NCBI GenBank assembly: GCA_036337945.1
Contig: JAYZDF010000029.1
Span: forward strand, 19,040-83,039
DNA length: 64,000 nt
From: Myxococcota bacterium
Lineage (GTDB): Bacteria; Myxococcota; Kuafuiibacteriia; Kuafuiibacteriales; Kuafuiibacteriaceae
Direction of reading: 5' to 3'
Part shown: piece after piece, positions 11,381-16,253 of the stretch
How the letters are laid out: each line of letters opens with the position of its first letter
Position numbering within the stretch: position 1 is the stretch's first letter
Program-made: the position numbers and the translations under genes
The notes under the pieces: model-generated
Databases searched by the model: none
What the model was told of the DNA's origin: nothing
What the model saw: only the letters and a program-made list of their open reading frames with translations

Positions 11381-12604
11381 TTGACCCGCTCGCTCATCTC
11401 AGCGATGCCTCGAATCGGATTCAATATGGCAAACACTGATGTAGGCGCAATCGTATTTGGAGTACTCGCAGCAGGCTTCATGCTGCTGATGATTCTGGCA
11501 CTGCGAAAGGTACTCAATAAGGGCGATTCTGCGAAGGCTATAGATGCAGAGTCATCTTCACCCGCTATAGAGGATGGCCTGAGTGAGGAAGAATCTACAG
11601 ACGAAATAGAGCAAGACGACGAGCCCTCTTTGGAAGCTGCAAAGCCCCAGCTCGAAGAACATACTGAGACGGATGCAGAAGAAACGTTAGAGTCTTCGCA
11701 AGAAGCAATGAATCGCGGTCTTGAAAAGACGCGTAAGGGCTTCATGAGTCGGCTCAAAGGCGCATTATTTGGCGGTAAAGCCATCGATGACGACCTTATT
11801 GATGAACTTGAAGAAATTCTCGTGACCTCAGATCTTGGGATTCACACGACCCAGAAGCTACTAGAGGGTGTACGTAACGAGCTCTCAAAGGCCGAACTCG
11901 CCGATGCCGACCTTATCCAAAATCACCTAAAGGAGAAAATACGCGAAATATTGGGTGAAAAAGCTCCTGAATTTAAGCATTCCGACGGCCCAACGGTCGT
12001 CATGGTGATCGGTGTCAATGGCGTAGGTAAAACAACCACGATTGGGAAAGTTGCGGCCCGTATGAATCGTGGTGGGTCAAAACTCATCCTTGCCGCCGGA
12101 GATACGTTTCGAGCGGCAGCCGTTGAGCAACTCGGTATATGGGCAGAAAGAAGTAATTCAAAGCTTGTACGTGGCCCAGATAATTCGGATCCAAGTGCTG
12201 TGATGTTCGAGGCCGTTCAAGCCGCGCAAGCAGACAAAGTTGACTATTGTATCGCAGACACCGCTGGCCGGCTCCACACGAAGATTAACTTGATGGAAGA
12301 ACTCAAGAAGGTGCGTCGTGTCATGGGGAAAGCGATGGACGGTGCTCCCCACGAGACGATTCTCGTCATTGATGCGACCACCGGGCAAAACGGGATCGCA
12401 CAGGCCAAAAAGTTCTCAGAAGCGGTGCCCATCGACTCGATTGCACTGACAAAACTCGATGGGACAGCTAAGGGCGGAGTCGTCGTCGCCATCTGCGACG
12501 CCCTTGGGATTCCAGTCCGCTATGTTGGCGTAGGTGAAGGCATCGACGACCTTCGTGACTTCGACCCAGATGAATTCGTCAATGCGCTTTTCTCTAACGA
12601 ATAA
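11381..12604 (+). CDS. ftsY: signal recognition particle receptor FtsY
   Basis: An acidic N-terminal region is followed by the NG domain with the GTPase motifs GVNGVGKTTTIGK, DTAGR and TKLDG. A hydrophobic N-terminal segment (after an internal Met at about 11426) suggests a membrane anchor. Confidence 0.9.
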   Translation: MTRSLISAMPRIGFNMANTDVGAIVFGVLAAGFMLLMILALRKVLNKGDSAKAIDAESSSPAIEDGLSEEESTDEIEQDDEPSLEAAKPQLEEHTETDAEETLESSQEAMNRGLEKTRKGFMSRLKGALFGGKAIDDDLIDELEEILVTSDLGIHTTQKLLEGVRNELSKAELADADLIQNHLKEKIREILGEKAPEFKHSDGPTVVMVIGVNGVGKTTTIGKVAARMNRGGSKLILAAGDTFRAAAVEQLGIWAERSNSKLVRGPDNSDPSAVMFEAVQAAQADKVDYCIADTAGRLHTKINLMEELKKVRRVMGKAMDGAPHETILVIDATTGQNGIAQAKKFSEAVPIDSIALTKLDGTAKGGVVVAICDALGIPVRYVGVGEGIDDLRDFDPDEFVNALFSNE

Positions 12605-12664
12605 CCTCGATTTAATCAGACTGGCATTGACGGCCCCCAAGTGACTTCGTAAAGTGCGGTTGGA

Positions 12665-13057
12665 ATGGTTGGTTCTCCACAGATTAGCGAGAAAAAGAGT
12701 CGAGACAAAAGGAACGTAAAAGTTGAGCTATATGGCCAACGGTTCTCAATTCGTACAGACGATGACGAGGAATACATTCAGAAGCTGTCGAACCACATCA
12801 ATCGGAAAATGCAGGAGATACGCAACGCAACAGGCCGCGTGGAAACCAGTCAAATTGCGCTACTCGCTCTCCTTGAAATGAGCGATACATTATTTCGAGA
12901 GCGAGCGAAGGTAGAGCAGCTGCGGGGAGAAGTAATGACAAAATCCAACACTCTGCTGCAGGCGATAGACGAAATATCTAACACTCTTGAACTTACCGAA
13001 GATGCCGCGGTAGCGGTTGCTTCAGCCGGAATTACTGGCAGAACCAATAAAAAATAG
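12665..13057 (+). CDS. zapA: cell division protein ZapA
   Basis: Small protein with a ZapA-like N-terminus (VKVELYGQRFSIRTDDDEEYIQKLSNHINRKMQEI...ALLALLEMSDTLF) and a coiled-coil C-terminus. It is followed by a candidate 6S RNA and ygfA, the conserved synteny. Confidence 0.7.
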   Translation: MVGSPQISEKKSRDKRNVKVELYGQRFSIRTDDDEEYIQKLSNHINRKMQEIRNATGRVETSQIALLALLEMSDTLFRERAKVEQLRGEVMTKSNTLLQAIDEISNTLELTEDAAVAVASAGITGRTNKK

Positions 13058-13094
13058 CGCCAAGGATGTCTTCAGAAGCCATTGGTTTTATTGG

Positions 13095-13345
13095 GTAACG
13101 GCCTGTGCCTGCCAACGTTTTTTAAATCAACCATTGATTCGCTTCAAAGTCGGATGCATACTTTAGGTCCCTGCTGGGTATCGATCACGGTCCTACATTG
13201 GGAACCGTAGAGACTTTATAGGGAGAGGTTCCTTCCGACGCCGCACGGACTACCCATGAGGTAGAGGTAGGTTGCCGGGATCACTTCGCCCACCTGCTGA
13301 GCGCAGGTTCCTCGTAGTATCAGTGCGGTACTTAGGCAGGGGTTA
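13095..13345 (+). ncRNA. ssrS: candidate 6S RNA (ssrS)
   Basis: A non-coding gap of about 290 nt lies between zapA and the 5-formyl-THF cyclo-ligase (ygfA homolog). This is the conserved zapA-ssrS-ygfA context. Distal complementary segments (cctgcc at 13108-13113 with ggcagg at 13335-13340) are compatible with a long closing stem. Boundaries are approximate. Confidence 0.45.
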
Positions 13346-13352
13346 TTTCTTC

Positions 13353-13943
13353 ATGGCTCAACCAGATGTCGAGAAAGCCGCATTTCGGACTCATGCTCGC
13401 AATCAACGAGTGGCCATTTCAAAAGAGCAGAGAAAGGTCGCCAGCGAGCTCGCCTGCAAACATCTCATGAGGTCGAACCTCTGGGCCTCAATTAGCTCGA
13501 TCGCTCTATATGCGGCATATGGAAGCGAGATCGACCCCCTCCCCCTCGAACAAGAGGCGACAAGCAGCGGTAAACGAATATTCTACCCTCGCGTGACTGG
13601 CGACAAACTTGAGTTTGCTGAGTCAAACTATAGCGATTTGACGAAGGGCTTTGCCGCAATTTTTGAGCCGACTGGGCCGCCTGTCGCATTACGCGACATT
13701 GACCTGGTAATCGTGCCCGGACTTGCTTTTGGTCCTCAAGGACAAAGGCTAGGTTCAGGTCGTGGTTTTTATGACCGAAGTCTCAATGGTGATGTTCTGA
13801 CAATTGGAATGGCATTTCACCAGCAAATCAGTAGTCAAGTTCCTACTCTTCCACATGACGTGCGAATGCAAGGAATCCTCACTGACAAGGGATTCACACT
13901 TGAGCCTTCAATCAAAGCAGATAGCGGGCTACACTCCGAGTAG
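13353..13943 (+). CDS. ygfA: 5-formyltetrahydrofolate cyclo-ligase
   Basis: 5-FCL family pattern (LYAAYGSEIDP...RIFYPRV...DLVIVPGLAFGPQGQRLGSGRGFYDR). The ORF track starts at 13272, but Met28 (MAQPDVEK, 13353) is the likelier start given the upstream ncRNA. Confidence 0.75.
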   Translation: MAQPDVEKAAFRTHARNQRVAISKEQRKVASELACKHLMRSNLWASISSIALYAAYGSEIDPLPLEQEATSSGKRIFYPRVTGDKLEFAESNYSDLTKGFAAIFEPTGPPVALRDIDLVIVPGLAFGPQGQRLGSGRGFYDRSLNGDVLTIGMAFHQQISSQVPTLPHDVRMQGILTDKGFTLEPSIKADSGLHSE

Positions 13944-13952
13944 CCGGGATAA

Positions 13953-15425
13953 ATGATGCAGTCACTCAGTCATGAAAATGGGAAAGAATCCGCGATAACT
14001 CTTATTGGCGTAGCCCCTGAATCGAAAAACATGAGTCGACTCAGTGATCAGTTAGACGCACAGGCATTTCTCCCTGATCACGCCTCACTTCTTGCCGCTT
14101 GCAATAACAGCTCAAAGCCCATCGTGATGGTGCTCCCGGCCCACAAGCCTTGGCTTATCCTGAAAGCCGCAAGGCATCCCAACGTTTTGCGTCTTGTCGT
14201 TTTTTACACCCACCAATCCAGCCCATCACGAATCAAACAAGCCCTTACCCGAGCCGCCTTCGCCCTCGTCGACCAGACTATCGTTTGGAGCATCGACGAG
14301 ATCACCTCGGCCGTTAGATCTGGCGCGGACCCTGATCGGATTATTTCCGCGCAACAAACAAACATTGTAGCGCATATACTCGACGAACAGCCCAGGCGTG
14401 CTCAGTCTGAAGCCGCCGCAAGCTTTGGTCTCGACGTCGCTGAAATGACTGGCACCATCCGATTACTCGAAAAGCTTTCCCCAGACAAAGGTGTAAACGT
14501 CATCAATTATCACCGAATCCTTCCTCCCGACGAACACCGAAGATACACGCGACCGCAGCAAGCCCTAGCCTCTCCCATATTCGAAATCCAACTCGAAGAA
14601 TTCGCTAATAGGGATGGTTTCGTCGACCTTGAAAATGTCAGAGATCGAAGCGCCGAGGGCAGCACAGGAATAACATTCGATGATGGTTACGAAGATAACT
14701 TTCGTGTCGCATTACCAGCGCTAAAAAAATGGTCTGTTCCAGCCTGGATTTTCGTCGTAACAGGCCAAGTCGGTAACGCTAACTCGTTATGGTGGGATTA
14801 CATAGGAGACGCACTTTTCGCGCTATGGGAGCAGAAGTCTGCGGAGCTCGAGCACCCGTCTCTACCCATACAATGTGGAGAGCTTTTGAAAACGCGTTCG
14901 ACCTTACAGGCCCGCAGACTCATTTCCGAAATTCTAACTGAACTTAACGCCACAAACGAGCACACCAGAAAAGACGTTTCAGATGTTTTGCGAAAGCTGT
15001 CAGGCCACAGCGAGCAGTCCACGATGCTCTCGTGGGAACAGGTTAAGGAGATGCACGCCTCTGGGATTCAGTTCGGGTCACATACGAGAAATCACGTCTG
15101 CCTCGACGAACTTTCCAGCAAAACGGCGAAGGAAGAAGTCCGAAGTGGGCAAGAAGACCTTGAGAAAGTTTTAGGGGACCGTGCCAAAAAGAGCGTTGCC
15201 TTACCACGTGGAAAACTCGGGCCTTTCACCGAAGAGACACTAAGGGAAGAAGGTTTCGAATCAGTGATGACAACAATTGCAGGTGTAAATAGAAGCTCTG
15301 ATAAATCACTGTTCGTTCTAAGGCGTGATGGAAAAATGCTCACTCTGCGCGGACGTCATCATCCTGCAAAAATGCGACTTGAATTATCTGGATGGCTCGA
15401 CCGTGCGCGGCAACTGCTTCGCTAG
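13953..15425 (+). CDS. polysaccharide deacetylase (NodB-homology) family protein with N-terminal extension of unknown function
   Basis: The C-terminal half has NodB-type motifs (ITFDDGYEDNF; H..HVCLDELS). The N-terminal extension of about 230 aa has no recognisable domain. Confidence 0.6.
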   Translation: MMQSLSHENGKESAITLIGVAPESKNMSRLSDQLDAQAFLPDHASLLAACNNSSKPIVMVLPAHKPWLILKAARHPNVLRLVVFYTHQSSPSRIKQALTRAAFALVDQTIVWSIDEITSAVRSGADPDRIISAQQTNIVAHILDEQPRRAQSEAAASFGLDVAEMTGTIRLLEKLSPDKGVNVINYHRILPPDEHRRYTRPQQALASPIFEIQLEEFANRDGFVDLENVRDRSAEGSTGITFDDGYEDNFRVALPALKKWSVPAWIFVVTGQVGNANSLWWDYIGDALFALWEQKSAELEHPSLPIQCGELLKTRSTLQARRLISEILTELNATNEHTRKDVSDVLRKLSGHSEQSTMLSWEQVKEMHASGIQFGSHTRNHVCLDELSSKTAKEEVRSGQEDLEKVLGDRAKKSVALPRGKLGPFTEETLREEGFESVMTTIAGVNRSSDKSLFVLRRDGKMLTLRGRHHPAKMRLELSGWLDRARQLLR

Positions 15426-15437
15426 GATACTGTTCGT

Positions 15438-16253
15438 TTACCTATCGAGTACAAAAGTAACAGGCACAGGAATCCACATCCCTACAACCGCACCGTCTTG
15501 TATAGCGGGCCTAAATCGCCAGTTTTTCTTCGCGTGCCGGACGGCGCTTTCGTCGCAGCCGTACCCAATCCCCTTGAGGATCTTCACTTTTTCAACGCGT
15601 CCGCTGGCCCCCACGTAAACTCGCAGCATCACACGCCCTTCGATATCGTTTTTGCGGGCCTCTTCCGGATACGGGGGCACACGATCGAATTCGGACGTTA
15701 TGAACTCTGGCGGGCTGTCTTCAAGATCGCCTCTCCCGGGCCCTTTTCCATTACCCGATGCAGGAGCGACTCTCTCCGTCGTTTTACTCCCCGGCGCCAA
15801 AGTATCGTCGGTTGGATCAGCGAACATATTTCCGCCACCGTCAATCGCTCTCGCGGCCACGCCACCCCCCATGACGGTTGAGGACATGTCGACCGAAAAG
15901 CCCATCGGTGGAGGTTGTGGCTTTGGCGGTGGAGGCTCATTACTAGGCGCCGGCTCTGCTTTTGGTTGTGCCTTGTTTTTCCTGACTGGCACACGTGGTT
16001 TTTTCTTTTTGACTTGAGCCGTCTTTACCTTGGGTTTGGGTTTGGGTTTTGGCTTAGGAGGCTCAGCAGGTTTTGGAGGGTCCGGTGCCTTCTTGACTAC
16101 TGGTTTTGGAGGCTTGGGTTTCGTGTTCACAATTTTCATGCGAACCTTCTTTGGACGAGGTACTTTTTCGCGTGCCTCAATATCATTGGCCATAAGCAAG
16201 ATAACGCCATGCAGAAGGACACTCGCGAGTGTTGCAATGCCTATAGACTTCAA
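15438..16253 (-). CDS. tonB: energy transducer TonB
   Basis: N-terminal TM helix, a proline/lysine-rich spacer (PKPPKPVVKKAPDPPKPAEPPKPKPKPKPK) and a C-terminal TonB domain (PPYPEEARKNDIEGRVMLRVYVGASGRVEKVKILKGIGYGCDESAVRHAKKNWRFRPA). Confidence 0.8.
   Translation of the reverse strand: MKSIGIATLASVLLHGVILLMANDIEAREKVPRPKKVRMKIVNTKPKPPKPVVKKAPDPPKPAEPPKPKPKPKPKVKTAQVKKKKPRVPVRKNKAQPKAEPAPSNEPPPPKPQPPPMGFSVDMSSTVMGGGVAARAIDGGGNMFADPTDDTLAPGSKTTERVAPASGNGKGPGRGDLEDSPPEFITSEFDRVPPYPEEARKNDIEGRVMLRVYVGASGRVEKVKILKGIGYGCDESAVRHAKKNWRFRPAIQDGAVVGMWIPVPVTFVLDR

Follow-up and report, generated by a model that had tools for sequence, protein, structure and literature searches.

The stretch of DNA analyzed here (the window, 64,000 nt) comes from an uncultured marine bacterium labelled Myxococcota by NCBI. 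On its plus strand, zapA, which encodes the cell division protein ZapA (130 aa, 12665-13057; PF05164, E 1.2e-18), is followed by the gene for 5-formyltetrahydrofolate cyclo-ligase (ygfA/fau; 196 aa, 13353-13943; PF01812, E 1.4e-31), and both neighbors are thus as a previous sequence-only reading of this DNA had named them. FtsY is encoded further upstream, and a polysaccharide deacetylase gene and a minus-strand TonB gene lie downstream. The cyclo-ligase is identical to a 196-aa NCBI protein labelled 'MAG: ... Myxococcota bacterium'; an exact-sequence look-up of the window's cyclo-ligase returned no match. From the end of zapA to ATG 13353 there are 295 nt (13058-13352), in which no ORF with a family assignment is present.

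This gap contains a match to the 6S/SsrS RNA family (RF00013) that extends from 13168 to 13343 on the plus strand and covers model positions 1-187 of 187, with a score of 49.0 bits against a gathering score of 46.4. The sequence-only reading had proposed a probable 6S RNA gene in the zapA-ssrS-ygfA context, which could be recognized with this model around 13000-13400, and a hit above threshold is indeed found there. The E-value of the match is 7.3e-9 when 12950-13450 (501 nt) is searched with permissive filters, and 9.3e-7 when the 64 kb are rerun in E-value mode; in this mode no other Rfam family was detected in the whole window at E<0.1. An Rfam cmscan of the whole window at gathering thresholds with fast filters reported no family, and given that relaxed filters recover the 49.0-bit match, the initial empty scan represents a loss at the filter step and not the absence of the element. 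The other Rfam matches within 12950-13450, Chlorobi-RRM (14.5 bits) and SNORD65 (14.4 bits), are far below their cut-offs. The non-coding stretch of roughly 290 nt that had been described at this place is real, but the RNA itself is 176 nt long and occupies the 3' 60% of that interval.

Gene order in related and distant genomes

Seven close homologues of the cyclo-ligase (51-84% identity) were obtained, all of them metagenomic (marine), from contigs L001/L002 and L003-L008 of JGI, ENA/Tara and Logan. Wherever the contig extends far enough (6-7 relatives), the order ZapA, a gap of 240-300 nt and cyclo-ligase is conserved, zapA being found at the same position in L001-L006. The gap carries a full-length RF00013 match in the seven relatives, with scores of 56.7, 55.3, 53.2, 46.3, 45.4, 43.5 and 38.7 bits; three are above the cut-off, and the other four are just below it (38.7-46.3 bits). 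A wider order is also kept, namely FtsY, ZapA, 6S, cyclo-ligase, polysaccharide deacetylase (490 aa), and TonB, ExbD and ExbB on the minus strand; it spans 11381-16253 of the window, 1-6591 of L001/L002, and L006. The deacetylase and TonB genes are common to L001/L002 and L006, whose cyclo-ligases are 84% and 51% identical, respectively, to that of the window.

The zapA-ssrS-ygfA arrangement has been described mainly for β- and γ-proteobacteria, and a place directly upstream of ygfA, often after zapA and on the same strand, is typical of proteobacterial 6S RNA genes, though not universal. In Escherichia coli K-12, a member of the Gammaproteobacteria, the same one-strand order is formed by zapA (3055612-3055941), ssrS (b2911; 3055983-3056165) and the 5-formyltetrahydrofolate cyclo-ligase gene fau (from 3056241). 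The E. coli RNA is 183 nt long, in comparison with 176 nt here, and the two RNAs share approximately 40% of their nucleotides. The spacers differ: zapA and the 6S RNA gene are separated by 110 nt in the window and by 41 nt in E. coli, whereas the distance from the 3' end of the RNA to ygfA amounts to 75 nt in E. coli, but to 9 nt in the window and to between 2 and 9 nt in the relatives. The linkage of ssrS to ygfA and its adjacency to zapA have been published previously (PMC4064990, PMC7641849), and in Coxiella burnetii ssrS likewise lies in the 5' UTR of ygfA (PMC4064990).

The next cyclo-ligase homologues (33-37% identity) are located directly behind a rarA/mgsA-like AAA+ gene, with a 4-nt overlap and no gap, and are followed by a gene encoding a FAD-binding flavoprotein (L036 1161-3076, L038 1158-3067, L039 1164-3076). 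No 6S match was found near these distant homologues (<=37% identity), and they could not be used to widen the RNA alignment. The gene rarA is also an upstream neighbor of the 6S RNA gene in lactic acid bacteria; unlike the window, the context in these bacteria is rarA-uspA, without linkage to ygfA (PMC8414754).

When 185,579 GTDB species representatives were scanned with the cyclo-ligase protein, no relative was detected, and a scan of the same set with an 18-nt invariant piece of the RNA gave 25 matches, none of them homologous (blastn extents of just 19-22 nt, and approximately 17 matches expected by a rough chance estimate). A scan of metagenome contigs yielded nothing beyond the contig of L001. 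Metagenome contigs and a single NCBI MAG seem to be all that represents this lineage.

A conserved rod with a central bubble

The RNA is better conserved than the genes that flank it. The mean column identity of the eight aligned RNAs is 89%, and the relatives are 79-98% identical to the window over the RNA, in comparison with 59-88% for the coding DNA of zapA and ygfA. In the closer subgroup the RNA is 96-98% identical to the window and the zapA and ygfA DNA 70-88%; in the farther subgroup the values are 79-85% for the RNA, 59-65% for the coding DNA and 7-38% for the spacer upstream of the RNA.

The RNAalifold consensus of the eight sequences includes 55 pairs in seven helices that form a rod consisting of a closing stem, a central bubble and a terminal stem, and the same architecture is observed in the single-sequence minimum free energy (MFE) structure. 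The closing stem (helix 1, 12 pairs, 100% paired, with one compensatory AU to GC change) joins 13168-13180 to 13329-13342; in the covariance-model match CCCUGCU (13169-13175) is paired with GGCAGGG (13335-13341). It is followed by an internal stem (helix 2) in which 13186-13196 pairs with 13314-13325 through 10 pairs, three of them with compensatory changes, and by a 6-bp GGAACC/GGUUCC helix (13201-13206 with 13306-13311) predicted by RNAalifold. The central bubble has approximately 14 nt on each side: the 5' strand (GUAGAGACUUUAUA, 13207-13220) is unpaired in the consensus as well as in the single-sequence MFE structure, and the 3' strand (13292-13305) carries a small UGC/GCA hairpin (helix 7). 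The apical part (13221-13291) is a stem with internal loops made of helices 4-6 (24 pairs, one compensatory AU to GC change in three sequences), and its terminal loop is located at 13255-13259. The bubble is bordered by G-C pairs that are invariant in the eight sequences, C13205-G13307 and C13206-G13306 on the closing side, and G13221-C13291, G13222-C13290 and G13223-C13289 on the terminal side. Such pairs flank the central bubble in the 6S family (Barrick et al. 2005, in the summary given in PMC4064990). The RNA of E. coli shares this architecture of two stems separated by a central bubble, including the G-C pairs that border the bubble. In that of C. burnetii a closing stem, a central bubble and a terminal loop are the three conserved domains, again with G-C pairs around the bubble; the latter RNA has experimental support from Northern blot, RNA-seq and RNA polymerase pull-down (PMC4064990), whereas that of the window is a prediction. 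Six invariant G-U/U-G pairs, which would be A-C mismatches on the opposite strand, indicate that the plus strand is the RNA strand.

The sequence-only reading had named two arms of the closing stem. The 3' arm had been correctly recognized, since ggcagg is present at 13335-13340 and belongs to the true 3' closing arm. The 5' arm had been placed at 13104-13113, but the sequence in question, cctgtgcctgcc, is in fact 12 nt long and lies at 13102-13113, upstream of the promoter-like site described below. Its complementarity to the 3' arm amounts to a 6-nt match, in which only the last six bases, cctgcc (13108-13113), are complementary to ggcagg. This arm was rejected because it is outside the RF00013 match and is unconserved even in the closest relative, where L001 reads GGCCGAGACATTCC; the true arm, CCCUGCU, is found 60 nt downstream. 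The earlier interpretation is correct, while the coordinates, the closing stem and the downstream start that accompanied it are wrong.

The consensus structure was compared with two kinds of controls. Standard pairs occur in 99.1% of the cells, and in only 34-49% when the partners are slid by 1-3 columns; changes on both sides of a pair were observed in five of the 55 pairs (nine cells), as opposed to zero or one pair in the slid controls. Among 500 column shuffles, at most one reached the observed number of paired cells, the double-sided changes or the covariation score; the count of further pair types was not above that of the shuffles. These figures refer to eight sequences that fall in two subgroups, so that the independent covariation events are few, and the structure evaluated was itself computed from this alignment; helices 3-5, in the center, are uninformative in this respect, because they are invariant or changed on one side only. 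The MFE was not unusually low relative to shuffled sequences, either for the 176-nt RNA (z -1.25) or for the whole gap (297 nt, z 0.03).

The position of the RNA raises the question of whether the element could be no more than a 5' leader acting in cis on the ygfA mRNA, such as a riboswitch or an attenuator, and not a stable trans-acting RNA that binds RNA polymerase. Riboswitches for folates exist, the downstream enzyme acts on folates, and in the eight loci the RNA ends 2-9 nt before the ATG of ygfA, too close for ygfA to have a promoter of its own or a free Shine-Dalgarno sequence. In spite of this, none of the riboswitch or leader families of Rfam 15 (THF riboswitches being covered if that release holds them) matched 12950-13450 with permissive filters at E<=10, the sole credible match being that to the full 6S model, and the structure shows the rod and central bubble of 6S RNA, not a pocket for a ligand. 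In E. coli, moreover, ssrS is co-transcribed with ygfA in the same way and yields a genuine 6S RNA, according to the account in PMC7641849 (its refs 95 and 96). A role as a cis-acting leader and nothing else is, in consequence, very unlikely.

A borderline chance hit of the covariance model, in a conserved intergenic region with another function or none, would fit the small margin of 2.6 bits over the gathering score, the failure of the default filters to retain the match and the unremarkable MFE z-scores. Nevertheless, the E-value on the whole window is 9.3e-7, eight independent loci match RF00013 over its full length in the canonical slot, and the compensatory changes agree with the helices of the model; this explanation is already largely refuted and we consider it extremely improbable.

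A third proposal holds that the cyclo-ligase carries 27 additional N-terminal codons, read from a TTG start across 13272-13352, in which case the 3' half of the RNA would be protein-coding; it has practically no chance of being right. In the window no stop interrupts the frame between 13260 and the ATG, and both TTG 13272 and GTG 13323 belong to it; L003 and L004 are likewise open up to the position of 13260, but the frame is closed by a stop 17 codons upstream of the ATG in L001 (whose protein is 84% identical), immediately before the ATG in L005, 5 codons upstream in L006 and 16 codons upstream in L008, with no alternative start in L001 or L008; the PF01812 domain begins at residue 8 of the protein that starts at ATG 13353; the identical NCBI protein and the gene calls at the seven related loci start at the equivalent ATG; and 13272-13352 is near-invariant, without third-position wobble, its changes being compensatory for pairing. 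The 27-codon leader on which the sequence-only reading had made the cyclo-ligase frame depend is thus unneeded, and continuous translation from 13272 is without comparative support. The TTG start was rejected on account of the unconserved upstream frame, and ATG 13353 is taken as the start of the cyclo-ligase.

Every testable trait of RF00013 is present at this locus, that is, the score, the architecture, the compensatory changes, the G-C pairs of the bubble and the synteny. We conclude with high confidence that 13168-13343 (+) of the window is the ssrS gene and encodes a 176-nt 6S RNA.

The two ends of the 6S RNA gene

Outside the RNA, the only invariant columns in the eight loci are ATTG and GCATAnT, which are kept at a fixed spacing in an otherwise 52%-identical spacer. 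They correspond to a -35-like hexamer, TTGATT (13134-13139), of which TTG and the preceding A are invariant, and to a -10-like hexamer, CATACT (13157-13162), located 17 nt after the former and ending 5 nt before the 5' end of the RNA. The -10-like hexamer reads CATAAT in L005, L007 and L008, and CATACT in L006. This σ70-type promoter-like site agrees with the consensus at 8 of 12 positions, and the threshold of the promoter scanner is 9 of 12; the promoter/terminator scanner called no site adjoining the RNA, and the boxes emerged solely from the comparative alignment. From this site, transcription would begin at, or directly beside, the mature 5' end, and the conserved boxes, placed for a start around 13168, are the only and indirect indication that the product may be a discrete, abundant and stable small RNA.

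In E. coli, 6S precursors are trimmed. The placement of the promoter-like site in the window for direct synthesis of the mature 5' end is unlike the situation in that bacterium; given the 5 nt that separate the -10-like box from the mature 5' end, little or no 5' trimming is implied here. E. coli has been reported to make longer 6S precursors (Kim & Lee 2004, as cited in PMC7641849).

Two palindromes were observed in the spacer. The first, AAACCA-T-TGGTTT (6+1+6), is located approximately 45 nt upstream of the -35-like box; in the window (13076-13088) it reads AAGCCA-T-TGGTTT, with one mismatch. It is kept in the four closest loci (window, L001, L003 and L004) and missing from L005-L008, and a regulator might bind it, or it might form a small hairpin behind zapA. 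The second, AATCAA-CCA-TTGATT (13125-13139), overlaps the -35-like hexamer; it is perfect in the window only, the relatives having TTGCTT, and is probably fortuitous. The weak Chlorobi-RRM match (14.5 bits) is on the minus strand and rests on this 13125-13139 hairpin; it is a chance match.

At the other end, a U-rich tail (UUAUUUCUUC, 13343-13352) lies between the closing stem and the ATG of ygfA. It was not called in the terminator scan, which found no canonical terminator. The short stretch from the 6S RNA to the ATG was seen at 13335-13355 of the window, at 2984-3003 of L001 and at the equivalent positions of L005-L008. The 2-9 nt that it comprises imply an obligatory co-transcription of both genes, and possibly a translation of ygfA that is limited by structure. 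The sole Shine-Dalgarno-like sequence ahead of ygfA, GGCAGGGG, is the G-run in the 3' arm of the 6S closing stem, and since it is inside this stem, the expression of ygfA is probably tied to the transcription and processing of the 6S RNA.

Going further, the 6S RNA and the translation start of ygfA might be physically fused, so that remobilization of the folate pool would be coupled to 6S maturation in a direct and inverse manner; we put this forward as a tentative and rather doubtful idea. Translation of the cyclo-ligase would in that case be confined to read-through transcripts that have escaped processing and whose closing stem has been opened; alternatively, it could proceed on a near-leaderless mRNA once the 6S RNA has been cut out. 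A read-through from ssrS into ygfA that is modulated by Rho has been described in E. coli, and the coupling proposed here, if true, would be tighter.

Predicted mode of action and significance

It is established that 6S RNA, as a mimic of an open promoter, is bound by the RNA polymerase holoenzyme containing the housekeeping sigma factor, and that its release takes place when the polymerase copies the 5' strand of the bubble into a short pRNA; in E. coli, the consensus GAgCCgA templates the pRNA from U44 (PMC3299989, PMC8414754, PMC9670815). In the covariance-model alignment this consensus corresponds to GAACCGU (13202-13208), and GGGAACCGUA (13200-13209) is invariant in the eight sequences; the pRNA-templating motif GANCCG of E. 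coli, at the 5' edge of the bubble, is thus also present and invariant here. From the alignment, the invariance and the E. coli U44 precedent, the pRNA template is predicted at 13195-13208 (pRNA 5'-ACGGUUCCCAAUGU). When these 14 nt were barred from pairing, in imitation of the pRNA duplex, the MFE structure was altered in the seven sequences tested, and the hairpin of the 3' bubble strand grew from 3 bp to 5-7 bp (ACCUGC-UGAGC-GCAGGU in the window, 13292-13308). This predicted rearrangement is of the kind known to drive release in E. coli and Bacillus subtilis. In 6S-1 RNA of B. subtilis and the 6S RNAs of lactic acid bacteria, a hairpin faces the central bulge of the 5' side, and a rearrangement driven by the pRNA is predicted (PMC8414754), similar to the hairpin extension predicted here. 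The invariant GGGAACCGUA and the modelled extension are consistent with polymerase binding and pRNA templating.

From what is established for the 6S family, the following sequence of events can be proposed. Transcription would begin around 13168-13170 from the TTGATT-17-CATACT promoter-like site, and the RNA would fold as an open-promoter mimic, lodge in the active-site cleft of the polymerase holoenzyme with its housekeeping sigma factor, and dampen transcription when conditions are stationary or nutrients are scarce. Upon the return of NTPs, the polymerase would copy the 5' strand of the bubble from near U13208 into a predicted pRNA, 5'-ACGGUUCCCAAUG...; where precisely it starts is a guess, and could be opposite U13208 or opposite A13209 (5'-ACGGUUCCC...). 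The pRNA:6S duplex would free GGUUCC (13306-13311), allowing the 3' bubble hairpin to extend to ACCUGC/GCAGGU, and with this extension the complex between 6S RNA and polymerase would fall apart. The ygfA message would arise from transcription that continues beyond the U-rich tail.

This is a routine 6S RNA gene that brings little new biology. Its interest lies first in annotation: ssrS genes are inconsistently annotated (PMC7641849), and here a 6S RNA gene that scores above the curated cut-off escaped a default filtered scan, so that standard pipelines may leave the gene unannotated and comparable 6S RNA genes are likely absent from MAG annotations. With the correct boundaries of the RNA, an N-terminal extension of the cyclo-ligase by 27 codons can also be dismissed as spurious. 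The short distance from the 6S RNA to the ATG represents a minor, testable variation on the coupling between ygfA and 6S RNA, and the zapA-ssrS-ygfA arrangement extends to a lineage labelled Myxococcota by NCBI.
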